Shown here in pieces: positions 28,881 through 47,047 of a DNA stretch of 64,000 nucleotides. Origin of the DNA: an uncultured delta proteobacterium (lineage in GTDB: Bacteria > Myxococcota > UBA727 > VGSZ01); NCBI GenBank assembly GCA_963775425.1, contig CAVZJB010000016.1, positions 1,184,001-1,248,000 of the forward strand. Direction: 5' to 3'. The position numbers and the translations under genes were made by a program. How positions within the stretch are numbered: the first letter of the stretch is position 1; each line of letters opens with the position of its first letter. The notes beneath the pieces were generated by a model. The model saw only the letters and a list, made by a program, of their open reading frames with translations. It searched no databases and was not told the DNA's origin.

Positions 28881-29339
28881 CTACGAGATCTTGATCTCTT
28901 GCGTCTTCGGCGTGGTCGCCGGCGCCTTCGGGATCATCAAGTGCAGCATGCCGTCCTTGTACGAGGCGTGGATCTTCTGATCGTCGACGCTCTCGGGCAG
29001 CGTGAAGCTGCGCTGGAAGCGACCGTAGCTCCGTTCCACGCGGTGCCACTTCTTGCCCTTGTCCTCCTTCTCTTGCCGGCGCTCGCCGGTCATCATCAGA
29101 ACACCGTTTTGCACGGACAGCTTCACATCCTCCTTTTTCACGTCCGGGAGCTCCGCGCTCACGACGTAGGCCTCGGGGGTCTCCTGGATGTCGACGGCGG
29201 GCGTCCATTCGGCGAACGTCATCGCCTCGGTGTCACCGAGGCCGAAGCGCGACAGGAAGCGCGAGTCGTTGAACATGCGGTTGAAACGGTCGATGGCCTG
29301 CTCGAAGTCACGAGCGGGATCCCAGCGGACGATTGCCAT
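28881..29339 (-). CDS. Hsp20/alpha-crystallin small heat-shock protein
   Basis: WTPAVDI.ET, AELPDV, ERSYGRFQRSFTLP, ASYKDGML; GGAGGT RBS. Confidence 0.96.
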   Translation of the reverse strand: MAIVRWDPARDFEQAIDRFNRMFNDSRFLSRFGLGDTEAMTFAEWTPAVDIQETPEAYVVSAELPDVKKEDVKLSVQNGVLMMTGERRQEKEDKGKKWHRVERSYGRFQRSFTLPESVDDQKIHASYKDGMLHLMIPKAPATTPKTQEIKIS

Positions 29340-29382
29340 GGTTTTCTACCTCCGTGCATCGCGGCGATGCGTGCACGCGTTC

Positions 29383-29398
29383 AGCAACGCGCGTGCCT
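29383..29398 (-). promoter_or_regulatory. Putative sigma54 promoter for hsp20
   Basis: Minus strand aGGCACGcgcgTTGCT, near-consensus TGGCACG-N4-TTGCW, 45 bp before the ATG. Confidence 0.75.
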
Positions 29399-29557
29399 GC
29401 CGAGGACCCGCTTGCGGATGCGATCGGCGCCCCTCGCCTGTGCGCGGAAGGACACGACTGCGCGGGAAAGCGCCCACGCCCGCGTCGACGAGCTCGCGAG
29501 CGCGCGAGATGTTGCGGGCCACTTGACGTCGTGTCGCCGGCGAGCGACGACGACGAC

Positions 29558-29911
29558 ATGGCGCTCACCGTCTACGGCATCCCCACCTGTGCCACCGTCA
29601 AGAAGGCGCGCACGTGGCTCGACAAGAAGCGGGCGGCGCACGCGTTCGTCGACCTCCGTGCGACGCCGCCGCCGGCGGCGCAGGTCAAGCGCTGGGTCGA
29701 CGCGTTCGGCGCGGCGGCGATGAAGAACACCAGCGGCGGGGCCTATCGCGCGCTCGGCGACGAGAAGAACACGTGGAGCGACCCCGAGTGGACGGGGCGG
29801 TTCGTTGGGGACCCCATGCTCATCAAGCGCCCCGTGATCGAGCGCGACGGCAAGCCCGTGCTCGTCGGGTTCCGGGCCGACGAGGCGACGCTCGCGCGCC
29901 TGTTGCTCTGA
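29558..29911 (+). CDS. ArsC/Spx/YffB-family protein
   Basis: VYGIPTCATVKKARTWL and PMLIKRPVI..G...VGF; 117 aa. Confidence 0.92.
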   Translation: MALTVYGIPTCATVKKARTWLDKKRAAHAFVDLRATPPPAAQVKRWVDAFGAAAMKNTSGGAYRALGDEKNTWSDPEWTGRFVGDPMLIKRPVIERDGKPVLVGFRADEATLARLLL

Positions 29912-29962
29912 CAACGACCCTGCATGTGCTCGCGGAACGTGCTTGCGGAATCTGTGGGAAAC

Positions 29963-30036
29963 TGGTTGGGGAACCGGGAGTCGAACCCGGATACTCGGAA
30001 TCAAAATCCGATGTCCTGCCTTTAGACGATTCCCCA
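29963..30036 (-). tRNA. tRNA-Gln (anticodon UUG)
   Basis: TGGGGAA...TTCCCCA-A-CCA acceptor stem, anticodon arm TCGGA-TTTTGAT-TCCGA, T-loop GGTTCGACTCC, encoded CCA. Confidence 0.97.
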
Positions 30037-30163
30037 GCAGGCGGGCTTCCTAGACGACGCCGTCGACGACCGGAATACCCTCCGCCGCCCCCCGGCGACA
30101 ACCCCGACAACCGGGCTTTACGACGTTGCCGGCCCGCGTGTCTGTGCGTAAGGAAGGGACCAC

Positions 30164-31531
30164 ATGACCGACGTGGCGCTGCCCAAGCGCAAGTTCCCAT
30201 GGGCTCTCGTCGTCGCCGTGGTCGCCGCCGGCGCCCTCGCGGCCTGGTTCTTCTACCCGCGGGCCCCGGACAAGCCCAAGATCACCACCGCCGCCGTGGA
30301 CCGCGGGGACATCACGGTGCGCGTCACCGCCACCGGCACCCTGTCGGCGCTCGTCACGGTCCAGGTGGGCAGCCAGGTGAGCGGCCGCATCCAGGCGATG
30401 CTCGTCGACTTCAACGACACCGTGAAGAAGGGCCAGATCATCGCCCGGCTCGACCCGCAGCTCCTCCAGGCCGCCGTCACCGAGGCCAAGGCCAACAACG
30501 CCGCCGGCGTCGCCGCCCTCGACCGCGCCAGGGTGCGCGCGGAGAACGCCCGGCACCAGCTCGCGCGGGCGCAGGGGCTCGCCGACAACAAGCTCATCGC
30601 CCAGAGCGAGCTCGAGGCCGCCGAGCTCGACGCCAAGGTCGCCGACGCCGACGTCGGCACCGCCCAGGCGCAGCTCGAGCAGGCCAGGTCGTCGCTCGAG
30701 CGCACGCGCATCAACCTCGGCTACGCCACCATCATCTCGCCCATCGACGGCGTCGTGATCTCGCGCTCCGTCGACGTCGGGCAGACCGTGGCGGCGTCGC
30801 TGCAGGCGCCCACGCTCTTCACCATCGCGCAGGACCTGCGTCGGATGCAGGTGGACACCAGCGTCGGCGAGGCCGACATCGGCAAGATCACGCCCGGCAT
30901 GAACGCCACGTTCACCGTCGACGCGTGGCCGTCGGAGCGCTTCGTGGGCAAGGTGAAGCAGATCAGGAACGCCCCGGAGACCGTGCAGAACGTCGTCAGC
31001 TACGACGTCATCATCGACGTCGACAACGCGGACCAACGGCTGCGCCCGGGCATGACCGCCAACGTCAACTTCACGGTGGCCACCAAGGGCGACGTGCTGC
31101 GCGTGCCCAACGCGGCGCTGCGCTTCCGGGCCCCGTCTTCTTTTCTTGCGGCGCTCGCGGGGGACAAGCCCCCGCGCCACGACGGCAACGGCGACGCGGG
31201 CGGCGCGGCGAGGACGGCGGCGGGGGACGAGCCCCCGCGCGACAACGGGGCGCACGGCGGGCCGCACGACGGCGCGCACGACGGGGGGACGCGCGACGGG
31301 GGGACGCACGGCGGGCGCGGCGTGGACGGCGCGCGTGAGGTGTGGGTGGTGCGCGGGGGTCAGCCACAGCCGGTGCGGATCCACACGGGGCTGTCGGACG
31401 GGACGGTCACCGAGCTCATCGGGGACGCGCTGCACGAGGGCGACGAGGTCGTCACCGACGCCAGCGCCGGCGCCGGCGCCAACGGGAGCGGGAACGGCCG
31501 CGCGCCGCGGATACCGCGGCGGATGTTCTAG
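30164..31531 (+). CDS. MacA-type periplasmic adaptor (membrane fusion protein)
   Basis: N-terminal TM, VQVGSQVSGRI, ISPIDGVVI..VDVGQTVAASLQAP, V.EADIG, LRPGMTA. Confidence 0.93.
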   Translation: MTDVALPKRKFPWALVVAVVAAGALAAWFFYPRAPDKPKITTAAVDRGDITVRVTATGTLSALVTVQVGSQVSGRIQAMLVDFNDTVKKGQIIARLDPQLLQAAVTEAKANNAAGVAALDRARVRAENARHQLARAQGLADNKLIAQSELEAAELDAKVADADVGTAQAQLEQARSSLERTRINLGYATIISPIDGVVISRSVDVGQTVAASLQAPTLFTIAQDLRRMQVDTSVGEADIGKITPGMNATFTVDAWPSERFVGKVKQIRNAPETVQNVVSYDVIIDVDNADQRLRPGMTANVNFTVATKGDVLRVPNAALRFRAPSSFLAALAGDKPPRHDGNGDAGGAARTAAGDEPPRDNGAHGGPHDGAHDGGTRDGGTHGGRGVDGAREVWVVRGGQPQPVRIHTGLSDGTVTELIGDALHEGDEVVTDASAGAGANGSGNGRAPRIPRRMF

Positions 31532-31545
31532 CGCGGGAGCCGGCG

Positions 31546-32247
31546 ATGCTCATTCACCTCGACGACGTCACCAAGACCTACGCCACGGGTGACGTCGAGG
31601 TGCGCGCGCTCCGCGGGGTCTCCCTCGGCATCGAGGCCGGCGAATTCGTCGCCATCATGGGCGCGTCCGGGTCCGGGAAGTCCACGATGATGAACGTGCT
31701 CGGGTGCCTCGATCGCCCCTCCACCGGCACGTACACGCTCGGCGGGCTCGCGGTGCAGCACCTCGACAGGCCCCAGCTCGCCTACGTCAGGAACCACACG
31801 CTCGGCTTCGTCTTTCAGTCGTTCAACCTGCTCGCGCGCACCAGCGCCATCGAGAACGTCGAGCTCCCCCTGCTCTACGCCGGCGTCCCGTCGCGCGAGC
31901 GCCGCCGCCGGTCCCTCGAAGCGCTCGATCGCGTCGGGCTCGGCGACCGGTACGCCCACCTGCCCAACCAGCTCTCGGGCGGCCAACAGCAGCGCGTCGC
32001 CATCGCCCGCGCCGTCGTCTCCAAGCCCAAGGTGCTCCTCGCCGATGAGCCCACCGGCGCCCTCGACTCCGTCACGAGCACGGAGATCATGGCGCTGTTC
32101 CAGGAGCTGTCGCGCGACGGCATCACCATCGTCCTCGTCACCCACGAGGCCGACATCGCCGCATGCGCGTCGCGCCTCATCGTCATGAAGGACGGCTCCG
32201 TCATCAAGGACGCGCCCCAGGCGCCGGTGGCGGCGGTGCGCGCGTGA
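31546..32247 (+). CDS. MacB/LolD-type ABC transporter ATP-binding subunit
   Basis: GASGSGKST, GFVFQSFNLL, LSGGQQQRVAIARA, ADEPTGALD, VTHE. Confidence 0.96.
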   Translation: MLIHLDDVTKTYATGDVEVRALRGVSLGIEAGEFVAIMGASGSGKSTMMNVLGCLDRPSTGTYTLGGLAVQHLDRPQLAYVRNHTLGFVFQSFNLLARTSAIENVELPLLYAGVPSRERRRRSLEALDRVGLGDRYAHLPNQLSGGQQQRVAIARAVVSKPKVLLADEPTGALDSVTSTEIMALFQELSRDGITIVLVTHEADIAACASRLIVMKDGSVIKDAPQAPVAAVRA

Positions 32248-33464
32248 GCCCTTTCGCCACCCTCCGCGTCGCCGTGCGCGCCCTCGTGCGCAACAGCACG
32301 CGCTCCATCCTCACCACGCTCGGCGTCGTCATCGGCGTCGGCGCGGTCATCGCCATGGTCGCCATCGGCGAGGGCGCCAAGTCCGAGGTCGAGCAGCAGT
32401 TCGCCTCCATGGGCGAAAACCTCGTCATCGTGCTCCCCGGCGCGTCCACCTCCGGCCACGCCATGGGCGGCTTCGGCAGCCAACCCACGCTCACCTGGGA
32501 CGACCTCGATGCCATCGTCGCGCTGCCGTCGGTGCGGGCGGCGGCGCCGCAGTTGCGCAGCAACCAGCAGATCCAGAGCGAGGGGCAGAACTGGTTCACG
32601 CAGGTGAACGGCACCACGCCCGACTACTTCCAGGTGCGCAATTGGACCCTCGCCACCGGGCGCATGTTCACGCCCGGGGACGTCGACGGGGCCGCCAAGG
32701 TGGTGCTCCTCGGCAAGACCGTCGTCGACGAGCTGTTCGGCAGCGGCGCCAACCCCGCCGGCCAGGCGGTGCGCATCAAGGGCGTCCCTTACGAGGTCGT
32801 CGGCGTGCTCACCGCCAAGGGCCAATCGCCCATGGGCCAGGACTACGACGACATCGTCTTCGTCCCGGTCTCCACGTTCCAGTCCAAGGTGCAGGGCGGG
32901 ATGAAGCGCTTCCTCACCGGCCCCATCCTCATCTCCGCCCGCGAGTCCACCCAGCGCACCATCTCCCAGACCAAGGCGTTGTTGCGCGAGCGCCACCACC
33001 TCGCGGAGCGCGACGAGGACGACTTCTCCATCCGCGACCTCACCGAGATCGCGGCGGCGCGGCAGCAGGGGACCGAGACCATGAGCCTGCTCCTCGCGAG
33101 CATCGCCGCGGTGTCGCTCCTCGTCGGCGGCATCGGCATCATGAACATCATGCTCGTGAGCGTCACCGAGCGCACCCGCGAGATCGGGATCCGCATGGCG
33201 GTCGGCGCCACGCCGGCCAACATCCTCGCGCAGTTCCTCGTGGAGGCGCTCGCGCTGTCGCTGCTCGGCGGCGTCCTCGGCATCGCCCTCGGCGTCGGGG
33301 TCTCGAAGATCGTCGCTGTCAAGCTCGGCTGGACCACGCTGGTTCGTCCGGGGGTCATCGCGCTCGCCGTCGGCTTCTCCGCCGGCGTCGGCGTCGTCTT
33401 CGGCCTCTACCCGGCGCGAAAGGCCTCCCAGCTCGACCCCATCGACGCCCTTCGGTACGAGTAG
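32244..33464 (+). CDS. MacB-type ABC transporter permease
   Basis: RSILTTLGVVIGV, VGGIGIMNIMLVSVTERTREIGIRMAVGA, PARKASQLDPIDALRYE; GTGA overlap. Confidence 0.96.
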   Translation: MSPFATLRVAVRALVRNSTRSILTTLGVVIGVGAVIAMVAIGEGAKSEVEQQFASMGENLVIVLPGASTSGHAMGGFGSQPTLTWDDLDAIVALPSVRAAAPQLRSNQQIQSEGQNWFTQVNGTTPDYFQVRNWTLATGRMFTPGDVDGAAKVVLLGKTVVDELFGSGANPAGQAVRIKGVPYEVVGVLTAKGQSPMGQDYDDIVFVPVSTFQSKVQGGMKRFLTGPILISARESTQRTISQTKALLRERHHLAERDEDDFSIRDLTEIAAARQQGTETMSLLLASIAAVSLLVGGIGIMNIMLVSVTERTREIGIRMAVGATPANILAQFLVEALALSLLGGVLGIALGVGVSKIVAVKLGWTTLVRPGVIALAVGFSAGVGVVFGLYPARKASQLDPIDALRYE

Positions 33465-33509
33465 CCCGCCCGTTTCACCCCGGATGCTCGCCCGAGGTAG
33501 CTTCGACGC

Positions 33510-36341
33510 GTGTCGAAGGAGACCGTCCAGGCCATCCGCGCGGCGACCTGGCGGAGCCCCGCCGAGGTGAGCGCCGTGCTCGCCGGGGCCGACGTGGACG
33601 CGGGCGAGATCCTGCAGGTGCTCGACCTCCTGCTGCACAAGGTCCTCGCCGCCGACGCCGAGCGCCACGCCCTGCGGCGTCAGGCGTTCGCCGCCCTCGT
33701 GCAGAGGCGGCCCGACGAGTCCCTCTTTCGGCCCTTCGTGCGCGCGTTCAAGCAGGCGCCGCCCGACGTGCGCACGGTGCTCGGCGACCTGCTGCCCAAG
33801 GTCGCGCAGAACGCCGACACCGCCGAGCTCGTCGACGTGCTGCGCTCGCCCGAGCCCGAGATGCGCGCGGCGGCGGCGCGCTCGCTCGTCGAGATCGCCC
33901 AGGGGCCGGGCGGCAAGGCCGTCGTCGCCGCCGTCTCCAAGCTCGTGAACGAGCGGGGCTTCGCCGGCCTCAAGGAGGCGCTCGACGTCGTCGTCCGCGC
34001 CGGCGGCGCCCACGCGGTGCCGCTCCTCGAGCGCGTGCTCCTCCACCCCGACCCGGCCGATCGCGTGCTCGCCGCGCGCTTGCTCGGCGACCCGCACGTC
34101 GCCGCGCGCGCGTCGTCACAGGTCATGCACGCGCTGCAGAACGCGGCGCGCGACCCGGTCGAGCAGGTGGCCATCGCCGCCGTCCAGGGCCTCGCCGTCG
34201 TCGCCACCGAGGCCGACTACCTCGCCGTGGCGGTGCCGCTCGTGGAGAGCAAGGACAACCGCGGGCTCAAGCTCGCCGCCGCCGCGCTCGAGGGCCTCCG
34301 TCGCTTTCCCAACGAGCGCACCGCCGCCATCCTCGAGCGCAAGATCGCCGTCGGTCCCAACACGCTCCGCTTCAGCGCCCTCGCCGTCGCGGAGGCCGCC
34401 GGCAGCGACGCGCTCCTCGGTGTCGTCGTCAAGGCGCTCGGCCACCCGCACATCGCGGTGCGCAACCGCGCGAGCGAGGTGATGTCGTCGATGGCGCGCT
34501 CGGGGCGCGTGGAGGTGGGGCGCACCATCGTGTGGCTGCTGCGCTCCCAGGACGTGAGCGTGCGCCGCATGGCCGCCGACGTCCTGCGCGCGGTGCCGGA
34601 TCCCCACGGCGAGCTGTGGCCCAAGCTCGTGTCCTCCTTGCGCGACGACGACTGGTGGGTGCGGGAGCGCGTGATGGACGCGCTCGTCGAGCTCGCGGGC
34701 CGCGGCCTCTCCCGCTACATGGTGGCGTGGCTCGCGGACGGCTCCGACGTCGTCCGCCGCTTCGCCCTCAGCGTGCTCCTGCGCCTGAAGGACCCGGAGA
34801 CCATCGGCGCGCTCGTCCACTGCGCCATGAACGACAGCGACTGGTGGGCGCGCGAGAAGGCCATCGAGGTCATCGCCGAGTTCCGCGACCCGCGCGCGGT
34901 GCCGACCGTCATCGACCTCATGCAGCGAAACCCCGAGCTGCAGCTCGCGTGTATCGCCGCGCTGCGCCGGATCGACGCGGGCGCCGCCGCGCCCCACGTG
35001 CTCCCCCTCGCGCAGTCGCCCGACGCCGACGTTCGCCTCGCGGTCCTCAAGCTCGTCGAGGAGCTCAACGACGCCTCGCACGCCTGGGTGGCCGACGCCC
35101 TCCACGACGACCCGGACCCGGCCGTGCAGCGCCTCGCCCGCTCGGTGGCCGCCCGCTACAGCGTGGTGCGCGAGAACGACCCCGCCGTGCCCGGCATCGC
35201 CCCGGTCGCCGGCGGCGACACCACCCCGCTCGACGTGCTGCTCACGCGCGTGGTCGAGGTCGGCGGCGACGACCTCATCCTCGCCTCCGACCGCCAGGTG
35301 TACGTGAAGCGGCCGGGCGGCATCGTCGCCGTCACCGAGCAGCCCGTGAGCGCCGAGCGCGCCTCGGCGCTCCTGACACCGCTTCTGTCCACGGCGCTGA
35401 TGCTGCGGCTCGAGACCAAGCGCGACGTCGACTTCAGCTACGCCGTCAAGGCCACCGGCGCGCGCTTCCGCGTGAACCTCTTTCGCCAGCGCGGCGGGCT
35501 CTCGGCGGTGTTTCACGCCGTGCGCGGCATCGTGCCCGACCTCGAGCAGCTCGGGCTGCCCGCGCCGGTGGCGTCGTGGTGCAACTTCAAAAACGGCCTG
35601 GTGCTCGTGGCCGGGCCGACGGCGTCGGGCAAATCCACCACGCTGGCGGCGCTCCTCGACGAGATGAACCGCAAGAGCTCGCGGCACATCGTCAGCATCG
35701 AGGACCCCATCGAGGTCCTGCACCCCGCCAAGCTCTCCCTCGTCAACCAGCGGGAGGTGGGCACCCACACCCGCAGCTTCGCGGCGGCGCTGCGCTCGGC
35801 GCTGCGCGAGGATCCCGACGTCCTCATGATCGGAGAGATGCGCGACAAGGAGACCATCGCGCTGGCGCTGACCGCGGCGGAGACCGGCCACCTCGTGTTC
35901 GGCACCATCAACACCATCTCGTCGGACCAGGCCGTCGAGCGCATCGTCAACGCGTTCCCGCGCAGCGAGCAGGAGCAGGTGCGCTCGTCCCTCGCAGACG
36001 TGCTGCGCGCCGTCCTGTGTCAGACGCTGGTGCGCGGGAAGGACGGGAACACACGCCACCTCGCGGCCGAGGTGATGATCAACAACGACGCCATCGCCAA
36101 CCTCATCCGCAAGGGCAAGTCCGTACAGATCCCGTCCATCGTCGCCACGGCGGCCGACGCCGGCATGCAGACGCTCGAGCAGGACCTCGCGCGCCTCATC
36201 CGCAGCGGCGTCGTCGACGTCGACGACGCCTCCGCCAAGGTGCGCAACAAGCGTGAGCTCGAGACCGCGCGCGGCGCGCCCGAACCCCCGCCGGCGCGGC
36301 CGGTGACGGGCACCGTGAAGCGCACGCTGGGGAGCGGCTGA
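33510..36341 (+). CDS. HEAT-repeat domain (~550 aa) fused to a C-terminal PilT/PilU-family ATPase
   Basis: Many HEAT-like units (e.g. LRDDDWWVRERVMDAL, DSDWWAREKAIEVI); GPTASGKSTT, SIEDPIE, NQREVG, ALREDPDVLMIGEMRD, AETGHLVFGTINT, AIANLIRKGK; 943 aa. Confidence 0.9.
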   Translation: MSKETVQAIRAATWRSPAEVSAVLAGADVDAGEILQVLDLLLHKVLAADAERHALRRQAFAALVQRRPDESLFRPFVRAFKQAPPDVRTVLGDLLPKVAQNADTAELVDVLRSPEPEMRAAAARSLVEIAQGPGGKAVVAAVSKLVNERGFAGLKEALDVVVRAGGAHAVPLLERVLLHPDPADRVLAARLLGDPHVAARASSQVMHALQNAARDPVEQVAIAAVQGLAVVATEADYLAVAVPLVESKDNRGLKLAAAALEGLRRFPNERTAAILERKIAVGPNTLRFSALAVAEAAGSDALLGVVVKALGHPHIAVRNRASEVMSSMARSGRVEVGRTIVWLLRSQDVSVRRMAADVLRAVPDPHGELWPKLVSSLRDDDWWVRERVMDALVELAGRGLSRYMVAWLADGSDVVRRFALSVLLRLKDPETIGALVHCAMNDSDWWAREKAIEVIAEFRDPRAVPTVIDLMQRNPELQLACIAALRRIDAGAAAPHVLPLAQSPDADVRLAVLKLVEELNDASHAWVADALHDDPDPAVQRLARSVAARYSVVRENDPAVPGIAPVAGGDTTPLDVLLTRVVEVGGDDLILASDRQVYVKRPGGIVAVTEQPVSAERASALLTPLLSTALMLRLETKRDVDFSYAVKATGARFRVNLFRQRGGLSAVFHAVRGIVPDLEQLGLPAPVASWCNFKNGLVLVAGPTASGKSTTLAALLDEMNRKSSRHIVSIEDPIEVLHPAKLSLVNQREVGTHTRSFAAALRSALREDPDVLMIGEMRDKETIALALTAAETGHLVFGTINTISSDQAVERIVNAFPRSEQEQVRSSLADVLRAVLCQTLVRGKDGNTRHLAAEVMINNDAIANLIRKGKSVQIPSIVATAADAGMQTLEQDLARLIRSGVVDVDDASAKVRNKRELETARGAPEPPPARPVTGTVKRTLGSG

Positions 36342-37433
36342 GTGGCGCGCATCGACTCCTTCCTGCGGCTCGTCGTCGAACAGGGCGCGAGCGATCTGCA
36401 CTTCGACGCCGGCAAGGTCCCTGTCATCCGCTACAACGGCGACCTGTTGCCGTTGCCGTTCCGCCCGCTGTCGGAGGCGGAGACGCGGCGCTTCCTCTTC
36501 GAGATGCTCGACACCGAGGAGCGCGACCGCCTCGAGAGCACGCAGGAGCTCGACCTCCTGTACGCCCTGCCCGACGTCGGGCGCTTTCGCGTGAACATGT
36601 TCGTGCAGTCGCACGGCTACGGCGCCGCCTTCCGCATCATCCCCGACCGCCCTCCGGAGCTCGACGTCCTCGGGTTTCCGCCCGTGGTCCGCCAGCTCAC
36701 GGCGCTGTCGTCGGGGCTGGTGCTCATCGGCGGGCCCACGGGGTCGGGCAAGACCACCACGCTCGCGGCCATCGTCCACGAGATCAACAAGACCGCGCAG
36801 CGCCACGTCATCACCATCGAGGACCCCATCGAGTTCCTCCACGAGCCCATCCAGAGCGTGATCACGCAGCGGCAGGTGGGCGCGCACATCGAGAGCTTCG
36901 CGGAGGCGGTGCGCTCGGCCTTGCGTGAGGCGCCCGACGTGCTCGTCGTCGGCGAGGTGCGCGAGCACGAGACCCTCCGGCTCGCGTTACAGGCGGCGGA
37001 GACCGGCGTGCTCGCGTTCGGCACGCTCCACACGGGCTCGGCGCCGAAGACCCTCTCCCGCGTCCTCGACATGGCGCCCGAGGACGCGCGCGAGCAATTG
37101 CGAGCCACGCTCGCGGTCCACCTGCGCGCGGTGCTGGCGCAACACCTCGTCAAGCGCGCCAGCGGCGACGGCCGCATCGCCACCCTCGAGGTGCTGGTGA
37201 ACAACCAGGCCGTGGCGTCGATGATCCGCGACAACAAGGTCGCGCAGCTCGACGGCATGCTGCAGTCGGCGTCGCCGGAGACCGGGATGCAGTCGCTCGA
37301 CGCGTGTCTCATCCGCTACCTCCGCGACGGCCTCGTCGACGCCGATGACGCCGTCAGCACCGCCGAGCACCCGGACGTCATCAAGCGCGCCATCGCGCAG
37401 CTCGCGATGGAGCAAGCGGAGGCGGCCCAGTGA
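36342..37433 (+). CDS. PilT/PilU-family ATPase paralog
   Basis: GASDLH, RFRVN, GPTGSGKTTT, TIEDPIE, ALREAPDVLVVGEVRE, AETGVLAFGTLHT, GMQSLD; starts immediately after the upstream stop. Confidence 0.93.
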   Translation: MARIDSFLRLVVEQGASDLHFDAGKVPVIRYNGDLLPLPFRPLSEAETRRFLFEMLDTEERDRLESTQELDLLYALPDVGRFRVNMFVQSHGYGAAFRIIPDRPPELDVLGFPPVVRQLTALSSGLVLIGGPTGSGKTTTLAAIVHEINKTAQRHVITIEDPIEFLHEPIQSVITQRQVGAHIESFAEAVRSALREAPDVLVVGEVREHETLRLALQAAETGVLAFGTLHTGSAPKTLSRVLDMAPEDAREQLRATLAVHLRAVLAQHLVKRASGDGRIATLEVLVNNQAVASMIRDNKVAQLDGMLQSASPETGMQSLDACLIRYLRDGLVDADDAVSTAEHPDVIKRAIAQLAMEQAEAAQ

Positions 37434-39121
37434 GCGACGCCGCCGAAGGGGCCGAGCTGGCCCGCGCGCGCGCCCTCGAGGGCCAGGGCGACCTCGACGC
37501 GGCGTACCGCGCGTACATGGCGGGCGGTCACCTCGACGACGCCGTGCGGCTCCTGCGTGACAACGGGCGGCCGCTCGACGCCGCCGACGTCATCATCGCG
37601 TGGGTCACGCAACGGCCGCGCCCCCTCGACGACAACGACCGCGCGTGGGCCACGCGCGCGGCCGAGCTCCTCGAGCAGGGGGACGCGCCCGCGCGCGCCG
37701 CCGAGATCCTCGCGTGGATCGGCGCCGCCGGCGAAGCGGCCGCGCTCGCGCAGAAGCTCCTCGCCGAGGGGCGGATCTTCGACGCGGGCGCGGCGCTCGT
37801 GCGCCTCGGCAATCCGGGGCGCGGCATCGAGCTCCTGTCCAAGACGCCGCGGGGCGACGCCCGCTACGCCGCGGCGTGCGTGGAGGTCGCCCGCGGGCTC
37901 GCGCGCGGCGCGGCCATGACCATGGAGCTCGACCGCTGGCTCGCGGACTTCATCCGCAAAGGACCCGACGACGACGTCGAAGCCGACGCCCTCTACGGCG
38001 TCGCCGCCGCGTTCGCGCGCGAGGGGTTCCCCGAAAACGCCATCGAGTGCCTGCTTCGCATCGAGGCCCGCCGGCCCGGCTTTCGCGACGCCGCGGCCCA
38101 GGCCGCGCGCCTGGAGGCGGGCGCGCGCAGCGCGGTGCACGACTTCGCGCGGGTGCTCGAGGAGGATGCGCGCTTCCTCGGTGCGCAGGGCCCTGGCGTA
38201 AAGCCGCTGCCCTCGGCCGCCATCGCCCCCACGGACACGCCGACCGTGATCACCTCGTCATCCGAGGACGAGCCGGCCGCTGCCGGACTGGCGCAGTCGT
38301 TCGCGCCCGGCGTCATCCTCGCGAAGCGCTATCGCCTCGAGGAGCTCATCGGGCGTGGCGGCATGTCGCTCGTGTACCGCGCCACGGACCTCGAGCTGAA
38401 CGACACCGTGGCGCTCAAGATCTTCACGCAGCCCACCAACGAAGACGCGCTCGCGCGCTTCAAGCAGGAGGTGCTGCTCGCGCGGCAGCTCATCCACCGG
38501 CACGTGGTGCGCGTGTACGACCTCGGCACCGCGCTCGGCGCGCGCTTCCTCACGATGGAGCTTCTCGTCGGCGAGGACCTGCACACCAAGATGGTGCACG
38601 GGCTCACCCTCCGGCAGGGCGTCGACTTTCTCATCCAGGCCTGCGCGGGCCTGGAGGCGGCGCACCAGGTGGGCGTCATCCACCGCGACGTGAAGCCGGA
38701 GAACCTGTTCGTCACGCGGGAGAACGTCGTCAAGGTCACCGACTTCGGCATCGCCAAGCAGTCGAGCCAGCCCGGGCTCACGGTGGCGGGGATGGTGGTC
38801 GGCACGCCGGAGTACATGGCGCCCGAGCAGGCGCATGGCCACATGAACGTCACGCCGCGCGCCGACCTCTACTCCATCGGCATCATCCTGTACTACCTCA
38901 CCACGGGGACGCTCCCGTTCCGCCACAGCGAGCTGGTGCCGCTGTTGATGATGCAGGTGACGCAGAAGCCCGACCCGCCGCGCAAGCACAACCCCGCGCT
39001 CCCCGGAGACGTCGAGGAGCTGGTGCTCTCGCTCCTCGAGAAGGATCCCGCGCTGCGGCCGCCGTCGGCGCGCGCCGTGGGCGAGCGCTTGATCGATCTG
39101 CGGCTGCGCGGCGTGGTCTGA
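37430..39121 (+). CDS. Cytoplasmic Ser/Thr kinase with N-terminal TPR-like helical region
   Basis: IGRGGMSLVY, VALKIF, HRDVKPEN, DFGIAK, GTPEYMAPEQ, DLYSIG; about 260 aa helical N-terminus; no TM seen; GTGA overlap. Confidence 0.92.
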   Translation: MSDAAEGAELARARALEGQGDLDAAYRAYMAGGHLDDAVRLLRDNGRPLDAADVIIAWVTQRPRPLDDNDRAWATRAAELLEQGDAPARAAEILAWIGAAGEAAALAQKLLAEGRIFDAGAALVRLGNPGRGIELLSKTPRGDARYAAACVEVARGLARGAAMTMELDRWLADFIRKGPDDDVEADALYGVAAAFAREGFPENAIECLLRIEARRPGFRDAAAQAARLEAGARSAVHDFARVLEEDARFLGAQGPGVKPLPSAAIAPTDTPTVITSSSEDEPAAAGLAQSFAPGVILAKRYRLEELIGRGGMSLVYRATDLELNDTVALKIFTQPTNEDALARFKQEVLLARQLIHRHVVRVYDLGTALGARFLTMELLVGEDLHTKMVHGLTLRQGVDFLIQACAGLEAAHQVGVIHRDVKPENLFVTRENVVKVTDFGIAKQSSQPGLTVAGMVVGTPEYMAPEQAHGHMNVTPRADLYSIGIILYYLTTGTLPFRHSELVPLLMMQVTQKPDPPRKHNPALPGDVEELVLSLLEKDPALRPPSARAVGERLIDLRLRGVV

Positions 39122-39151
39122 GCGCGCGCGGGACGGCCTGGATGTCGTGAC

Positions 39152-39185
39152 GCCGCTCGAATTGCCGACCGGAGGGAGCGGCCGC
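39152..39185. repeat. REP-like motif copy/hairpin between the convergent kinase and argH genes
   Basis: CGACCGGAGGGAGCGGCCGC at 39166-39185; gccgctc (39152) can pair with gagcggc. Confidence 0.65.
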
Positions 39186-39192
39186 GGTCAAT

Positions 39193-40485
39193 TCAGACGA
39201 GGGCGCGCAGGCGCTGCTCGAGGCGATCGAGGCCGAGGTTGGCGGCGCCACCGAGGGAGACGCGCGCCTCCAGGCTCTGCTCGGGCGTGCGCGCCGCGAG
39301 CGTGGGGATGTCGCGAGCGGCGCGGGCGTAGGCGATGCGGAAGGGGACGCCGGCGCGCGCGAGCTCCAAAGCGCGGTCGGTGGCGTGCATGTCGCCGGTG
39401 ATGGCGGCCCGCATGCGCTCCTCGTCGAAGCGGACGGCGTCGACGAGGGCGGGCACGAGCTCGAGGCCCGCCAGCGCGCGCTCGCACGCACGCACCAGGG
39501 GCGCCTTGGTGGTCTGCAGGTCGCGGTGGTAGCTCGACGGCAACGACAGCGCCGCCGACGTCTCCGCGAGCGCCCCCTCCACCACCGCCGGCAGCGCGCG
39601 CAACAGCTCGACCACGTCGGGGTTTCGCTTGTTCGGCATGAGCGAGCTGCCCGTGGTGTATGCGTCGGGGAGCACGACGAAGCCGAGCTCGGTGGTGGCA
39701 TACAGCGACAGGTCCCACGCGAGCCTTCGCACGTCGACGCACGCGAGGTGAAGCGCTTGAAGCGCGAACAGCTCGATCTTGCCGCGACCGTTCTGCGCGG
39801 CCATCGGGCTCACGATCACCCGGCCGAAGCCGAGCTCCGCGGCGATGCCGTCTCGGTCGAGCGCCACGCTCACCCCGAAGCCCGCGCCCGTGCCGAGCGG
39901 CGACGCGTTGGCCAGCTCCCGGGCCCCCTGCGCCGCCTGGGCGTCGTCGAGGAACCCCTCCGCGTGGCCCGCCATCCACATCGCCAGCGACATGGGCATG
40001 GCGCGCTGCAGGTGCGTATAGCCCGGCATGGGGACGTCGACGGAGCGCTTGGCCCTCTCGAGCAGGCGTGCCGCCGTCTCGCGCGAAGACGCGTACAAGC
40101 GATCGAGCTGCGCGAGCAGGTAGAGGCGCTGCGCCACCAGCACCTGATCGTTGCGCGAGCGGGCCGTGTGCACCTTGCGCCCGAGGTCGCCGGCCTTCTC
40201 GGTCAGCCAGCTCTCGATCGCCGTGTGACCGTCCTCGTAGCGATCGTCGAGCACGAAGGCGCCCGCGAGCCACTCCTGCCCGAGCTGGACGAGGAGCCCC
40301 GCCAGCCGGTCGCGCTCATCGGCGCTCAGGATGTCCGCGCGAGACAGCGCGTTGACGTGCGCGATGGTCGCGCGGACGTCGTGCACGAACAGCGCTCTGT
40401 CGAGGACGACGTCGTCGGCGGCGCAGAAGCGCTGCACGGCCTCGTCGAGCTCGACCTTGCCCTTGGCCCACAGCGGCGCTGTCAT
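39193..40485 (-). CDS. argH: Argininosuccinate lyase
   Basis: EDGH, HTARSRNDQV, MPGYTHLQRA, TTGSSLMPNKRNPD, SYHRDLQ. Confidence 0.96.
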   Translation of the reverse strand: MTAPLWAKGKVELDEAVQRFCAADDVVLDRALFVHDVRATIAHVNALSRADILSADERDRLAGLLVQLGQEWLAGAFVLDDRYEDGHTAIESWLTEKAGDLGRKVHTARSRNDQVLVAQRLYLLAQLDRLYASSRETAARLLERAKRSVDVPMPGYTHLQRAMPMSLAMWMAGHAEGFLDDAQAAQGARELANASPLGTGAGFGVSVALDRDGIAAELGFGRVIVSPMAAQNGRGKIELFALQALHLACVDVRRLAWDLSLYATTELGFVVLPDAYTTGSSLMPNKRNPDVVELLRALPAVVEGALAETSAALSLPSSYHRDLQTTKAPLVRACERALAGLELVPALVDAVRFDEERMRAAITGDMHATDRALELARAGVPFRIAYARAARDIPTLAARTPEQSLEARVSLGGAANLGLDRLEQRLRALV

Positions 40486-40498
40486 CGCTCATCCTCCA

Positions 40499-41416
40499 TC
40501 AGCCTTTTCGAGGCGCGGCGGCTGGTCCGCCGCAGGGGATGCCCGCGGTCTCATCGAGACCGAGGGCGAGGTTCATGTTCTGCACGGCCTGCGTGGCGGC
40601 GCCTTTCAGCAGGTTGTCGAGGGTGACGACGAGCGCGACCCGCGTGCCGGCTCGGTCGGCGGCGGCGCCGCCCACGCGCGCCCCGTGGGTGCCCCGCGCG
40701 TCGCGCACCTCCGGCGTCTCGCGCACGGCGTCGACAAGCGGCTCGCCTGCGCCGGGCGCGCCGTATCTGTCGACGAGACGGGCGTAGGCCTCCTCGTCGC
40801 TCATGGGCCGCGAGAGGGGCACCGACAGGGTGAGGGTGATGCCCGCGTAAAACGGTGCCACGTGCGGCATGAACGCCACCGGGCGGCCGAGGTGTCGCGC
40901 AATCTCGCGCTCGTGGGTGTGGTCGACGAGGCCGTACGGCAGCAGGTTGTCGGCGAGCCGCGCGGGGTCGTTCCTCGGCGACGGCGTGGAGCCCGCCCCC
41001 GAGTACCCCGACACCCCGAACACGGAGGGCGCAGCGGCGGCGACGTCGAGGAACGGGTCGAGGCCGAGCTGCGCGCCGGTGGCGTAGCAGCCTGGGTTGC
41101 TGATGCGCCGCGCGCCGCGCACGCGCGCGCGGTTGCGCTCGGGGAGCCCGTAGACCCAGGCATCGTCGAAGCGGTGGTCGGCGGAGAGGTCGACCACCAC
41201 GGGGCCGGCGTCGCCGACGGCGTCGAGGTACGGCGCCGACGCGCCGTTGGGTGCGGACAGGAACAACACGTCGAGCCCGGCCGCCGCGGCCTCCCCGGGG
41301 GAGGCGCGCGCGCCCTCGCCGAAGACGAGCTCGACGCCGGCGTGGCCCTCGAGGAGCTTCACGAGCTCCCGGCCGGCGGCGCCGCGGCCGCCGACGACAC
41401 CGGCGCGCACGGTCAC
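40499..41416 (-). CDS. argC: N-acetyl-gamma-glutamyl-phosphate reductase moiety (may be a separate gene from internal GTG 41416)
   Basis: VGGRGAAGRELV, VDLSADHR, YGLPE, ISNPGCYAT (catalytic Cys), SGYSGAG, DNLLKGAATQAVQNMN; GGAG lies 8 nt before GTG 41416. Confidence 0.88.
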   Translation of the reverse strand: MTVRAGVVGGRGAAGRELVKLLEGHAGVELVFGEGARASPGEAAAAGLDVLFLSAPNGASAPYLDAVGDAGPVVVDLSADHRFDDAWVYGLPERNRARVRGARRISNPGCYATGAQLGLDPFLDVAAAAPSVFGVSGYSGAGSTPSPRNDPARLADNLLPYGLVDHTHEREIARHLGRPVAFMPHVAPFYAGITLTLSVPLSRPMSDEEAYARLVDRYGAPGAGEPLVDAVRETPEVRDARGTHGARVGGAAADRAGTRVALVVTLDNLLKGAATQAVQNMNLALGLDETAGIPCGGPAAAPRKG

Positions 41417-42766
41417 GACCGGCGCTCCGATGGCGTGGGCCTTGAGGGTGGCCGGCATGGCCAGGGCGCGCTGGATACACGCTTCGATGACTTTGAAATC
41501 GTCGATTCCGTACCAGAACACGATCCACTTCCCTGCCTTGATGGCGCCGTCGGCGCGCTGGAAGTACCAGCCGTTCACCTCGTTGTCGACGCGGGCGCGC
41601 CAGAAGAGCTGCGGGTTCTCGTCGGCGATGCGCTGCCAGAGAGAGCCGCCGACGCCGTCGCCCTGGGCCTCGGAGGTGACCGCGAACTTGTCGAGGTAGG
41701 CGACGCCGTCCGTGCCCTCGATGGCCTCGCGCGTGAGGATGGCCGTGGCCCGATAGCTGTCCGCCAGATAGATGCGGAAGAAGGGCCTCTGGTCGAAGTA
41801 GTCGAGGTGGAGCTTGCGGCCGAAGCCGTCCTCGAGGAGCGCGCGCAGCTTCTCCCGGTCGATGCCCTCGAGCGAGTCGTGGCGGCGCACGCGCTCCCCG
41901 AGCCTGATGAGCGTGCCCGCGCCCTTGTGGGTGAACAGCTCGCGCGTGAGGTTCTCCGGCGAGGCCACCGCCGCCGACGACGACAGCGGCAGCACCTCGA
42001 GGAGCGCGCGCGCCACCTCGAGCTTCTTCTTGTGCGAAGGCGCCAGCCACTCGGCGTCGACAAGGTGCTCATAGTCCTCGACGAGGTTGACCGCGCTGAT
42101 GATGTGGCCCTCGGCGTCGCGGATGCCGTCGTCGGGGGAGAGGAACACCACCTTGAAGGGCTCGAGCGCGCGGGCGAGGGCGCCGCAGGCCTCGTCGGCG
42201 TTGACGTTGACCACCTGTCCGCTCGCCGTGAGCGCGAGGCTCGCGAGGATGGGGATCTGCTCCCCGCGCACGCTCGACTCGACGAGCTCGAGGTGCACGC
42301 CGCTGACGGTGCCGGCGTAGCCGAAGCGCTCGCGATCGATGAGCTCGGCCTCGAACACGCCGGTGGGGACGGGGCGCGCGTCGACGCCGAGCGCCTCGAG
42401 GGCGTCGGCGATGCGGAGGTTCTCGCGCTGAAAGACCCTGCGCGCGATCTCGATGCCGCGCTCGCTGACCACGCGCTCGCCGCGCTCGTTCTCGGCGGGG
42501 ACGCCGGCCTCGGCGAGCGCCGCCTTGAGCTGGGGCCCGGCGCCGTGCAGCACCACGGGCGTGAGGCCGACCTTGTCGAGGAACGCGATGGAAGACGCGA
42601 GGGCGTCGAGCTCCTGCTCCACGACGCCGCCGGAGACCTTGATGACGGCGAAGCGCTGGCGCACCGATGAAAAGAGCTTGAGGTACTGCTCGACCTCCTT
42701 GCGGGTGCCGAGGCTCTGCAGCAGCCGGACGATCAGGTCCTCGGTGCGATCCTGTGGGTCGCTCAC
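40499..42766 (-). CDS. argB: As assembled, one 755-aa ORF: acetylglutamate kinase + DUF619/GNAT (NAGS/K-type) + ArgC
   Basis: FAVIKVSGG, VLHGAGPQ, NVNAD, ELFTHKGAGT, YLDKFAV..AQGDG, LFWRARVDN.VNGWYF, then the ArgC region in frame; GTGA overlap with argE. Confidence 0.88.
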   Translation of the reverse strand: MSDPQDRTEDLIVRLLQSLGTRKEVEQYLKLFSSVRQRFAVIKVSGGVVEQELDALASSIAFLDKVGLTPVVLHGAGPQLKAALAEAGVPAENERGERVVSERGIEIARRVFQRENLRIADALEALGVDARPVPTGVFEAELIDRERFGYAGTVSGVHLELVESSVRGEQIPILASLALTASGQVVNVNADEACGALARALEPFKVVFLSPDDGIRDAEGHIISAVNLVEDYEHLVDAEWLAPSHKKKLEVARALLEVLPLSSSAAVASPENLTRELFTHKGAGTLIRLGERVRRHDSLEGIDREKLRALLEDGFGRKLHLDYFDQRPFFRIYLADSYRATAILTREAIEGTDGVAYLDKFAVTSEAQGDGVGGSLWQRIADENPQLFWRARVDNEVNGWYFQRADGAIKAGKWIVFWYGIDDFKVIEACIQRALAMPATLKAHAIGAPVVTVRAGVVGGRGAAGRELVKLLEGHAGVELVFGEGARASPGEAAAAGLDVLFLSAPNGASAPYLDAVGDAGPVVVDLSADHRFDDAWVYGLPERNRARVRGARRISNPGCYATGAQLGLDPFLDVAAAAPSVFGVSGYSGAGSTPSPRNDPARLADNLLPYGLVDHTHEREIARHLGRPVAFMPHVAPFYAGITLTLSVPLSRPMSDEEAYARLVDRYGAPGAGEPLVDAVRETPEVRDARGTHGARVGGAAADRAGTRVALVVTLDNLLKGAATQAVQNMNLALGLDETAGIPCGGPAAAPRKG

Positions 42767-43851
42767 GCGGCGCCTCCTCCCGCGACGGCGCGCGCACCGA
42801 GGACGCCGGCGTACAGGCGCTCGGCCTCCTCGAGCTGCGCGAGCTCCACCCACTCGTCGGGCGCGTGGGCCTGGGCGATGTCCCCGGGCCCGAACACGAC
42901 GGCGTTGGCCCCGGCCTCGGAGAACAGCGCCGCCTCGGTGAAGAAGTCCACCGCGGGGCCGTCGGCGAGGCCGAGCGCCCGCGCCGCCGCCCGCGCCGGC
43001 TCCGGCCCCCCGGAGGCCGGCAGCGCCGGCGCGAGGTAGCCGCGCTTCCACGTGACCCGCGACGCGTCGGGCGCGAGCGCGCAGAGCGCGTCGACGACGG
43101 CGGCGGGATCGCCGAAGGGGCGAACGCCGAACCGCAGCGTGGCGCGCTGCGCGATCATGTTGGCCTTCACGCCGCCCTCGATGGTGCCCACGTTGAGTCT
43201 GACGTCGTGGGCGCCGGCGTATTCGAGGGCGCGCGCCCCCCAGCGCACCGCCTCGTGAACGGCGCTGTCGGCGAGGGCGCGGGCGTTGGAGGCGTGGCCG
43301 GCGACCCCGTGGAACGTCCCCGTGCACGTCCCGATGCCGCGGTGCTCGACGACGGCGCGGCAGCGGGTGGGCTCGGCGACGAGCACCGTGCGCCCCTTGA
43401 CGTCGTGCTCCGCGAGGAACGTGCGCACGCAGCGGCTCGAGCCGGCCTCCTCGTCCGACGTGAGCAAGAGCTCCGCCGGCCCCTGGGTGCCGGTCGCCGC
43501 CACGAGGAAGGCGGCCAGCGCGCCCTTGATGTCGCAGGCGCCGAGCCCCACCGCGCGCCCCCCGTCCACCTGCAGCGCGTGGGCGCCGCGGCTCCAACCC
43601 ATCGCCGCAGGCACGGTGTCGACGTGGACGTTGACGAGCGGCCCGCCCTCGCCGCGCCTGAGGTGGAGCCAGGCGCAGCCGTCGCCGAGCTCCCGGACGC
43701 CGGACGTCGCCCCGGACGCGGCTGCGAACCCGCGCGCATCGAGCGCGCCCACCGCGTACGACAGGAGCGCGAGCACCCCGGCGGGAGCGCGCGGCGGGTT
43801 CTGCGTGTCGAACGCCACGAGGCGCTCGAGGTGCGCGAGCAGCGTGGTCAC
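42763..43851 (-). CDS. argE: Acetylornithine/acetylcitrulline deacetylase (M20 family)
   Basis: LVAFDTQNPPR, NVHVDTVP, GLGACDIKG, DEEAG, AEPT, GPGDIAQAHAPDE; located in the arg operon. Confidence 0.93.
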   Translation of the reverse strand: MTTLLAHLERLVAFDTQNPPRAPAGVLALLSYAVGALDARGFAAASGATSGVRELGDGCAWLHLRRGEGGPLVNVHVDTVPAAMGWSRGAHALQVDGGRAVGLGACDIKGALAAFLVAATGTQGPAELLLTSDEEAGSSRCVRTFLAEHDVKGRTVLVAEPTRCRAVVEHRGIGTCTGTFHGVAGHASNARALADSAVHEAVRWGARALEYAGAHDVRLNVGTIEGGVKANMIAQRATLRFGVRPFGDPAAVVDALCALAPDASRVTWKRGYLAPALPASGGPEPARAAARALGLADGPAVDFFTEAALFSEAGANAVVFGPGDIAQAHAPDEWVELAQLEEAERLYAGVLGARAVAGGGAA

Positions 43852-46117: not shown

Positions 46118-46612
46118 ATGAGCCGAAGCCTTGCCGCCGTCCTCGTCGCCATGGTCGTCGCCACCGGGCTGTACAGCGCCGGTGCGCGGGCCGCGCGCGC
46201 CGTCATCGTCATCCGTCACGCAGAGAAGGAGCGAGACGCGGGCAAGGACCCCGACCTGAGCATCACCGGCGAGGATCGCGCTCTTTCGCTCACCACGTTC
46301 CTCCACCACGACAAGATCGACGCCATCTACGTCACCGAATACAAGCGGACGCAGAAGACGGCGGCCGCTTTGGCGGAGCTCAAGGGCGTGAAGCCCGTGG
46401 TGGTGAAGGCCGGCGACACCAAAGGGCTGGTGGCGAAGATCGCGGCGCTGCCCAAGGATGCCGTGGTGGTGGTGGTCGGCCACTCGAACACGGTGCCGGA
46501 GATCCTCGCCGCCCTCGGCGTCAAGGACAAGGTCAGCCTCCGGGAGAACGAGTACAACCGCGTCTTCGTCGTCACCCCGAAGGACGGCGGCCTGCTCGAG
46601 TTCACGTACTGA
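46118..46612 (+). CDS. Exported histidine-phosphatase-family protein
   Basis: Signal peptide, IRHAEK, RTQKTA, VVGHSNTVP. Confidence 0.88.
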   Translation: MSRSLAAVLVAMVVATGLYSAGARAARAVIVIRHAEKERDAGKDPDLSITGEDRALSLTTFLHHDKIDAIYVTEYKRTQKTAAALAELKGVKPVVVKAGDTKGLVAKIAALPKDAVVVVVGHSNTVPEILAALGVKDKVSLRENEYNRVFVVTPKDGGLLEFTY

Positions 46613-46625
46613 GCGGCCCGGCGGC

Positions 46626-46681: not shown

Positions 46682-46690
46682 CTGACGCGC

Positions 46691-46963: not shown

Positions 46964-46992
46964 CGATCTTCTCCGTGGGGGTCTGCGGGTGG

Positions 46993-47021: not shown

Positions 47022-47047
47022 GGGATAGCACGAGATCCGGGGGCCCC

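Follow-up and report, generated by a model that had tools for sequence, protein, structure and literature searches.

Three plus-strand genes lie end to end at 33510–39121 of the window analysed here, a 64,000-nucleotide stretch of DNA from an uncultured delta proteobacterium. They encode a fusion of HEAT repeats to a PilT-type ATPase (PilTa), a stand-alone PilT paralog (PilTb) and a soluble Hanks-type Ser/Thr kinase (Table 1), and we refer to them together as the cassette. The TGA stop of gene 1 (36339–36341) is followed with no gap by the GTG start of gene 2 at 36342, and genes 2 and 3 share a GTGA overlap at 37430–37433. The first-pass annotation of this DNA, made from the sequence letters, had described exactly this layout of three genes with a 0-bp gap and a GTGA overlap, and its observation is correct in every particular. 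The GC content is 72% throughout the window, and the third-position GC of the three cassette open reading frames (ORFs; 0.93–0.97) matches that of the window's other real genes. A promoter and terminator scan of 29300–39400 returned no promoter-like site and three terminator-like sites, all on the minus strand, with a mean of 2.6 in shuffled sequence, and is uninformative. Genes for a HlyD-type adaptor, an ABC ATPase and a MacB_PCD/FtsX permease precede the cassette on the same strand (30164–33464, ending 45 bp before gene 1), and arginine-biosynthesis genes follow it on the opposite strand.

Table 1. Features of the HEAT–PilT, PilT and kinase cassette, in window coordinates
Feature	Position	Strand	Basis
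Gene 1, HEAT–PilT fusion (PilTa), 943 aa	33510..36341	+	ORF call, translation, Pfam and NCBIfam
HEAT/ARM solenoid of gene 1, aa 1–556, 32 helices, ~16 repeats (predicted)	33510..35177	+	AlphaFold2 model, Foldseek
PilT ATPase module of gene 1, aa 575–915	35232..36254	+	TIGR01420
PilTa Walker A, GPTASGKST	35613–35639	+	motif
PilTa Asp box	35697–35714	+	motif
PilTa Walker B	35817–35843	+	motif
PilTa His box ETGHLVFGTINT (GHLVFGTINT), second His to Asn	35880–35915	+	motif
Gene 2, stand-alone PilT paralog (PilTb), 363 aa	36342..37433	+	TIGR01420
PilTb Walker A	36732–36758	+	motif
PilTb Asp box	36816–36833	+	motif
PilTb Walker B	36936–36962	+	motif
PilTb His box ETGVLAFGTLHT (GVLAFGTLHT), first His to Val	36999–37034	+	motif
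Gene 3, soluble Hanks-type Ser/Thr kinase, 563 aa	37430..39121	+	Pfam, NCBIfam, motifs
TPR-like superhelical domain of kinase, aa 1–249 (predicted)	37430..38176	+	model, fold matches, alignment A3
Pro-rich low-confidence linker of kinase, aa 250–300	38177..38329	+	pLDDT 51–71, alignment
Kinase catalytic domain, aa 301–549	38330..39076	+	Pfam PF00069, 160 bits
Kinase VALK	38408–38419	+	motif
Kinase HRD (HRDVKPEN)	38681–38704	+	motif
Kinase DFG (DFGIA)	38741–38755	+	motif
Kinase APE (APEQ)	38819–38830	+	motif

The HEAT–PilT fusion is genuine and is no assembly artefact, because a PilT match directly follows the HEAT match in all 80 of the related loci examined. These loci come from a scan of species-representative genomes with a HEAT-only alignment (A1), which matched at least 598 stretches, 562 of them confirmed by tblastn; the locus counts given here and below rest on the best 80 of these at least 562 confirmed HEAT stretches. 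An assembly indel, which the first-pass annotation had named as a possible origin of the fusion, is answered by its recurrence in 80 of 80 loci. HEAT and PilT fall within one ORF in 57 of the 59 loci with derived gene coordinates, and in the other two the PilT match runs 3 and 30 nt past the stop. Within the window protein, Pfam places HEAT_2 (100.9 bits in four stretches) and HEAT (53.6 bits) in the first 560 residues and adds T2SSE, and the PilT module scores 387.7 bits against the NCBIfam PilT/PilU model TIGR01420, above its curated cut-off of 319.1 bits. The boundaries found (HEAT, aa 1–556; TIGR01420, aa 575–915) agree with the roughly 550 residues of HEAT repeats fused to PilT that had been read from the translation.

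Protein databases give the same picture. A search with the gene 1 protein returned 200 proteins at E ≤0.001, the best 120 of which cover 77–100% of the query at 43–100% identity and contain both HEAT and T2SSE domains. The named relatives carry the generic description 'PilT/PilU family type 4a pilus ATPase' and come from metagenome-assembled genomes (MAGs) assigned to Myxococcales, Deltaproteobacteria or Myxococcota. A profile search of 1.84 billion cluster representatives found 3300 proteins at E ≤1e-30, and we classified the best 150: 39 have full HEAT and full PilT regions, 5 are partial forms with PilT, 15 are short fragments, 5 have a full HEAT match with no PilT hit and 86 are other HEAT-repeat proteins. 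Two of the five representatives with full HEAT and no PilT are ∼650 aa long, with ∼100 further residues, and are probably truncated; the other three are giant generic HEAT proteins. No clear split form, with a stand-alone HEAT homolog, is present among these 150.

An AlphaFold2 model of residues 1–570, computed from a 38-sequence alignment (A2), predicts a continuous all-helical solenoid over the entire HEAT region (pLDDT 91.3, pTM 0.75; predicted local and global model confidence). By this model the HEAT region is an ordered solenoid and not a disordered extension. The top Foldseek match in the PDB is the PP2A A subunit PR65 (E 3e-9 to 1e-8, TM-score 0.36–0.49), with an identity of 16–18%, followed by karyopherin-beta, CAND1 and SF3B1. 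The likeness to PR65 is a fold analogy to adaptor scaffolds and does not imply common descent. Judged by invariant alignment columns, conservation within the solenoid is highest at aa 307–465, around a repeated DxDWWVRE motif.

Several variants of the fusion were seen among its relatives. In one family member (P0355, 1336 aa), an MshEN domain, which is otherwise the N-terminal regulatory or docking domain of PilB/MshE/GspE ATPases, precedes the HEAT–PilT body at aa 65–146. In another (P0027, 1222 aa), HEAT–PilTa is continuous with a PilTb from which about 70 N-terminal residues are missing; this is a single record, and it may be either a natural fusion or the product of a deletion or assembly artefact. 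A sub-branch consisting of the L079 protein (9998–13555 of its locus) and P0124–P0131 has a C-terminal extension of ∼100–290 aa past the PilT module, giving proteins of 1005–1198 aa; TPR_19 is among the precomputed Pfam domains of P0124. Behind the HEAT–PilT family, the matches to the HEAT region that rank next (P0178–P0223) are many proteins of ∼800 aa in which a Ser/Thr kinase domain is joined to HEAT repeats; their similarity may be generic to HEAT repeats, at 24–32% identity over a quarter of the query.

PilTb is a complete PilT-family protein (TIGR01420, 396.0 bits), as had been proposed for the stand-alone paralog. Its best solved relatives are the PilT proteins of Pseudomonas aeruginosa, Geobacter metallireducens and Aquifex aeolicus (E 2e-87), and its mean column identity over 34 orthologs is 69%. 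To place the two ATPases we computed a quick maximum-likelihood tree of 68 modules, taken from the window, every second of the other 54 two-gene loci, six close relatives and six further locus ATPases, so that about half of the loci are left out. PilTa and PilTb each form a clade with an SH-aLRT branch support of 99, and the two clades are sisters (SH-aLRT 99) when compared with four ATPases of the same loci, two of them canonical PilTs and two PilB/GspE-like. Two of the locus ATPases that we had first classed as 'other' fall within the PilTb clade. By eye, the PilTa and PilTb trees broadly mirror each other. On this phylogenetic evidence PilTa and PilTb are sister PilT-family ATPases that have diverged together.

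The nucleotide-binding motifs of both ATPases are intact, and it is at the His box that they depart from PilT. Walker A, the Asp box and Walker B are retained in both window proteins, and of the 76 PilTa and 57 PilTb copies at the loci, most match the corresponding patterns (57 of 57 for the PilTb Walker A). A His box of the form GH......H is shared by the solved PilT structures from P. aeruginosa, G. metallireducens and A. aeolicus and by the two canonical PilTs from the loci. Both window ATPases deviate from this two-histidine pattern (H222 and H229 in P. aeruginosa PilT), and neither has the canonical catalytic pocket; the histidine that is missing differs between the two. For PilT of P. 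aeruginosa, the H222A change is described as lowering twitching and retraction velocity and as increasing falling off the machine, and H229A as abolishing twitching and lowering ATPase activity (PMC10187167).

The two substitutions differ in how widely they are shared. At the first histidine of the PilTb box, 56 of the 57 locus copies have V, I, L, T or A instead, and among the best 120 relatives the position is V in 106, I in 5, T in 3 and His in none, with 6 unscorable. The same census of the best 120 PilTa relatives gives HH in 97, HN in 18, HQ in 3 and HR in 1, with 1 unscored. The HN forms (P0004–P0016 and six others) include the nearest relatives of the window protein.

Gene 3 is a Hanks-type kinase by every feature examined: PF00069 scores 160.2 bits, and the catalytic lysine, HRD, DFG and APE motifs are all present. 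The catalytic motifs are conserved in the orthologs, with DFG in 42 of 43 orthologous kinase ORFs, and the kinase is apparently active, as judged from these motifs. We find no transmembrane-like segment in gene 3 (maximum KD19 = 1.27), and this bears out its earlier description as a soluble Hanks kinase.

The first-pass annotation had also assigned the kinase a TPR-like N-terminus, and here the evidence divides. Residues 1–249 are modelled as a TPR-like helical-repeat superhelix with a pLDDT of 90.5, in keeping with that assignment, but TPR sequence models stay below threshold: no Pfam TPR model matches gene 3 at E 0.01, and NCBIfam TPR_END_plus scores 16.6 bits, under its cut-off of 32. TPR proteins lead the PDB fold matches, with E-values no better than 9e-4 (about 1e-3), and the nearest clusters in an Atlas search are likewise TPR proteins, with a score of 0.88, under the 0.9 lead threshold. 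The low-confidence linker that separates this region from the catalytic domain contains LPDLPDLP-type repeats in the orthologs. The length ahead of the kinase domain varies among orthologs from ∼190 to ∼530 residues, and a core corresponding to window aa 95–249 is kept in all.

The trio is a conserved, compact and co-inherited three-gene module. Gene order was counted by tblastn with the window proteins over the 80 loci, all of which come from MAGs; by NCBI label, 55 are Myxococcota and 11 Acidobacteriota (8 of them Vicinamibacteria), and the rest bear the older label 'Deltaproteobacteria' or odd labels. Of the 72 loci whose sequence extends 1.5 kb or more past HEAT–PilT, 68 have PilTb directly after it, the exceptions being L002–L005. 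Of the 54 loci with 2.8 kb or more beyond that, all except L045 (53) have the kinase after PilTb. The claim that the three genes are a coupled, evolutionarily conserved unit is borne out by these counts, as is the linkage of the kinase, whose loss elsewhere had been named beforehand as a ground for giving up the idea. Two loci are informative about rearrangement. In L004, PilTb and the kinase lie together 2.3 kb upstream of HEAT–PilT, and in L053 a kinase lies immediately upstream of HEAT–PilT, beyond which the contig ends. The order is broken in L004 and yet PilTb and the kinase are together, and L053 is compatible with the same arrangement.

Spacing between the genes is short in most loci. 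By a simple start-codon heuristic applied to 59 loci, genes 1 and 2 are separated by ≤10 nt or overlap in 39, and genes 2 and 3 do so in 47, 19 of which have a 4-nt overlap like that of the window. When the 1267 ORFs of the window and the 80 loci were clustered all against all, just two real families proved to be widely shared, one of PilT genes and one of kinase genes; a third large cluster is made up of antisense shadow ORFs. No other conserved neighbour emerged from this clustering, the next-best ORF family occurring in 7 of the 81 regions.

We considered the upstream MacAB-like transporter as a further part of the module and rejected it, because matches to it occur in just three other loci and at other positions. 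Within 10 kb, an ABC match lies upstream in L032 and a MacB match ∼8 kb upstream in L059, and L075 has ABC and HlyD matches just downstream of the cassette on the other strand; no MacAB-like match lies within 10 kb in the remaining loci. The arginine genes of the window are likewise outside the unit.

We also note some features of individual loci. L009 and L048 are cassette contigs of one MAG record set (JAFGSN01), which may reflect two copies or a mixed bin. A hexapeptide-repeat transferase gene precedes HEAT–PilT in L003, L004 and L005, the sub-clade with a split cassette, and in L004 a gene for an FHA-domain protein lies just downstream of HEAT–PilT on the other strand.

How might these three proteins work together? 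Our preferred explanation, to which we assign a probability of roughly 45%, is that the cassette is a self-contained, vertically co-inherited operon, found mostly in uncultured Myxococcota-like bacteria, that encodes an accessory PilT-type motor controlled by its own Ser/Thr kinase. PilTa and PilTb would assemble into PilT-like hexamers, either sharing a mixed ring or forming two rings that cooperate as PilT and PilU do. The HEAT arms may serve as protein-docking surfaces that place the ring at a partner or connect it to one. The kinase would dock through its TPR domain and could switch the motor by phosphorylation, or be switched by it. The target is most likely a type IVa pilus machine whose genes lie in another part of the genome, on which the motor would act in trans, like other PilT paralogs. 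In the window's own clade, where the second histidine is lost, PilTa may serve mainly as a HEAT-bearing scaffold subunit and PilTb would do most of the hydrolysis. In favor of this explanation stand the conserved gene order and spacing, the paired descent of the two ATPases, their TIGR01420 scores and intact nucleotide-binding motifs, the His-box substitutions, the confident HEAT solenoid with its likeness to scaffold and adaptor proteins, and the conserved catalytic motifs and TPR-like fold of the kinase. For the pilus as target speak the type IV pilus-type ATPase genes near the cassette in 4 of the 80 loci, the MshEN domain of P0355 and the partial S-motility defect described for deletion of MXAN_6706, a member of an adjacent pair of PilT paralogs in Myxococcus xanthus (PMC13584747). 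The first-pass reading, a heteromeric motor whose HEAT solenoid scaffolds the kinase or a substrate, is supported in part: the conserved module, the fusion and the kinase linkage are borne out, and the mixed ring and the scaffolding are candidate features. Complex predictions that combined HEAT residues 85–556 (as the partner), PilTb and the kinase TPR core (aa 85–249) scored 0.74, 0.75 and 0.69; in the controls, replacing PilTb gave 0.69 and replacing the partner, in two versions, gave 0.00 and 0.00, and we do not use these values as evidence either way.

A number of observations weigh against this explanation. (i) Pfam finds no pilin, PilB, PilC or secretin among the 36 other ORF translations of the window, although small pilins could escape the ORF filter, and 76 of the 80 loci show no match to another type IV pilus-type ATPase in the 10 kb around the cassette. 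(ii) Both His boxes differ from the canonical PilT motif, and therefore normal retraction activity cannot be assumed. PilTs also have an AIRNLIRE-type motif at the C-terminus, which reads AIANLIRK and AVASMIRD in the window ATPases. (iii) In L002, L003 and L005, HEAT–PilT occurs without PilTb or the kinase nearby. (iv) No isolate is named among the best 120 relatives of the window fusion, of the L079 fusion or of the L079 PilTb, so no phenotype exists for any member; for the two L079 proteins, which are from an 'Archangium sp.' MAG, the best 120 are MAG and metagenome proteins only.

The first of these points deserves a closer look. The first-pass annotation had called the module free of pilus genes, and this holds for the 64-kb window but not for 4 of the 80 loci, in which other type IV pilus-type ATPase genes lie within 10 kb of the cassette. 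In L015, pilC (T2SSF), a PilT match (by tblastn only) and pilB (MshEN and T2SSE) are found ∼2 kb away on the other strand, and in L011 a canonical PilT lies ∼230 bp upstream. A rough chance expectation is about one such locus in 80, compared with the four seen, so this association is weak support at best. The link to pili thus comes down to family membership and a marginal enrichment, and this too counts against the preferred explanation.

Some of these observations would also suit a different machine. In the strongest alternative, PilTa and PilTb would form a machine for remodelling or translocation that derives from PilT but has ceased to act on pili. Its HEAT arms would capture a non-pilus client, for example a secretion substrate, a further envelope machine or a factor of the cytoskeleton or of cell polarity, and the kinase would gate it. 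Pilus genes are absent from the window and from most loci, the cassette moves as a unit among unrelated genomic contexts, the His boxes and the AIRNLIRE-like C-terminal motif differ from those of canonical PilT, and the HEAT solenoid resembles general adaptor scaffolds. MacAB-like efflux genes adjoin the window cassette and have matches within 10 kb in three other loci, but this neighbourhood amounts to just 4 of 81 regions. On the other side, both ATPases are full-length PilT/PilU members that score above the curated cut-off, and some relatives adjoin pilB–pilT–pilC or a canonical pilT. PilT paralogs are, moreover, often encoded apart from pilus genes. We regard a non-pilus client as a serious rival to the pilus, though a less likely one.

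A bolder combination of these ideas, which we consider rather improbable, is an obligate mixed ring in which a HEAT-armed, catalytically weakened PilT is combined with a His-box-variant PilT and PR65-like arms hold the TPR kinase together with a non-pilus client. If this were true, six PR65-like arms would couple ATP-driven ring movement to phosphorylation, giving a bacterial analogue of a scaffolded kinase/phosphatase holoenzyme built on a secretion-type ATPase, and a new kind of cytoplasmic machine derived from a retraction motor.

Anti-phage or stress defence is a further candidate function, in which the kinase would work with NTPases in the manner of PD-T4-6 or MADS systems. The kinase domain matches PADLOC models for PD-T4-6 (up to 262.8 bits) and mad6, but these matches span only the generic Hanks catalytic domain and are expected of any such kinase. 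The ATPases match mad8 weakly (24–31 bits), at the level of the P-loop only. The flanking genes of the cassette are variable, as would suit a defence module, but in the window they include housekeeping neighbours (arginine biosynthesis, an ABC transporter and Mfd), mobile and defence genes are absent among the scanned window ORFs, and the GC content of the cassette equals that of its surroundings. The ATPase trees, which broadly mirror each other by eye, fit a largely vertical inheritance. Neither a defence role nor a chance neighbourhood is likely, and we would give the defence module only a very slim chance. The last alternative, an ordinary PilT/PilU pair next to an unrelated kinase, with the HEAT fusion an artefact of annotation or assembly, finds encouragement in database names that say only 'PilT/PilU family type 4a pilus ATPase' or 'twitching motility protein PilT', and is refuted by a fusion that recurs in 80 of 80 loci and in 39 of the best 150 cluster representatives, by a kinase linked in 53 of 54 loci and by a tree that makes PilTb the sister of PilTa and not of the canonical PilTs from the same loci.

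Elsewhere in the window, a single minus-strand ORF at 40499–43597 has amino-acid kinase, N-acetylglutamate synthase (NAT) and semialdehyde dehydrogenase domains and looks like a fused arginine-biosynthesis gene; its neighbours are argH-like, M20 peptidase and ornithine carbamoyltransferase genes. At 54311–63927 (−), a gene for a bacterial alpha-2-macroglobulin of 2407 aa adjoins one for a PBP1c-type transglycosylase/transpeptidase. At the left end of the window (1–6321, −), an ORF that exceeds 2100 aa and contains bacterial TSP3 repeats continues beyond the window. Two further Hanks kinases are encoded at 17165–18472 and 51459–52376. Overlapping ORFs on opposite strands both have Pfam matches, MutS_V for 46602–50501 (−) and TPR repeats for 47394–50480 (+), and either may be the gene.

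PilT paralogs are common, but the roles and control of most of them are an open question, and the cassette is a defined case in which to approach it, offering long-paired paralogs, a built-in docking arm and a dedicated kinase. It makes testable (i) mixed or cooperating PilT rings, (ii) the N-terminal extensions of retraction ATPases and (iii) Ser/Thr phosphorylation of motors. In its complementary His-box losses, the cassette also provides a natural test of what these residues do.

Among known systems, the PilT/PilU pairs of P. aeruginosa, Vibrio cholerae and Myxococcus xanthus resemble the cassette, whose ATPases both exceed the TIGR01420 cut-off, in having two adjacent genes for paralogous PilT-family hexameric ATPases. 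The second motor of such pairs is described as depending on or modulating the first (PMC13584747; PMC6762196). The cassette differs from these pairs in the 556-aa HEAT solenoid of PilTa, in a PilTb family without the first His-box histidine, in the kinase linked as a third gene and in the lack of pilus gene context in the window. PilTa and PilTb are also each other's closest relatives, in a tree that held two canonical PilTs only.

The nearest studied case is found in M. xanthus, where, according to one report, three of the four PilT paralogs have no assigned role and MXAN_6705 and MXAN_6706 are adjacent PilT paralogs 'highly conserved across Myxococcales' (PMC13584747). MXAN_6705 is described there as having a longer N-terminus, predicted to be disordered, and deletion of MXAN_6706 as causing a partial S-motility defect (PMC13584747). 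By published description, then, these genes share with the cassette the adjacency of two myxobacterial PilT paralogs, the first with an N-terminal extension; that the extension is called disordered, and not HEAT, sets them apart from it and, in this comparison by description only, is a further point against the preferred explanation. In the text of that report (PMC13584747), 'HEAT' appears nowhere and 'kinase' once, in a title in the reference list. The claim of an uncharacterised architecture accordingly needs a qualification. No description of a HEAT–PilT fusion or a PilT–kinase cassette was found in the full-text literature, subscription-only papers being outside the scope, but because M. 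xanthus has an adjacent pair whose first member is N-terminally extended, the architecture may not wholly lack a studied relative.

The remaining comparisons concern single components. PR65, karyopherin-beta and CAND1 are of the same fold class and size as the HEAT solenoid, with about 15–16 repeats, and PR65 and other HEAT adaptors are scaffolds that keep an enzyme and its regulators together. Unlike PR65, to which it is 16–18% identical, the window solenoid is covalently fused to a PilT-type hexameric ATPase. PilB/MshE-type ATPases are also motors of the T2SSE superfamily with an N-terminal extension for regulation or docking, and the family member P0355 even has an MshEN domain; the window protein, unlike them, has no MshEN, its ATPase is of the PilT type and its extension is a solenoid. 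Mycobacterial PknG is a soluble Hanks-type Ser/Thr kinase combined with a TPR domain. Compared with kinases of this type, the cassette kinase differs in domain order and partners: its TPR-like region is N-terminal, on a Pro-rich tether, and its gene is locked to two PilT genes. The three-gene architecture as a whole is distinctive and widespread, appears to be uncharacterised, and belongs to the PilT-family motors.

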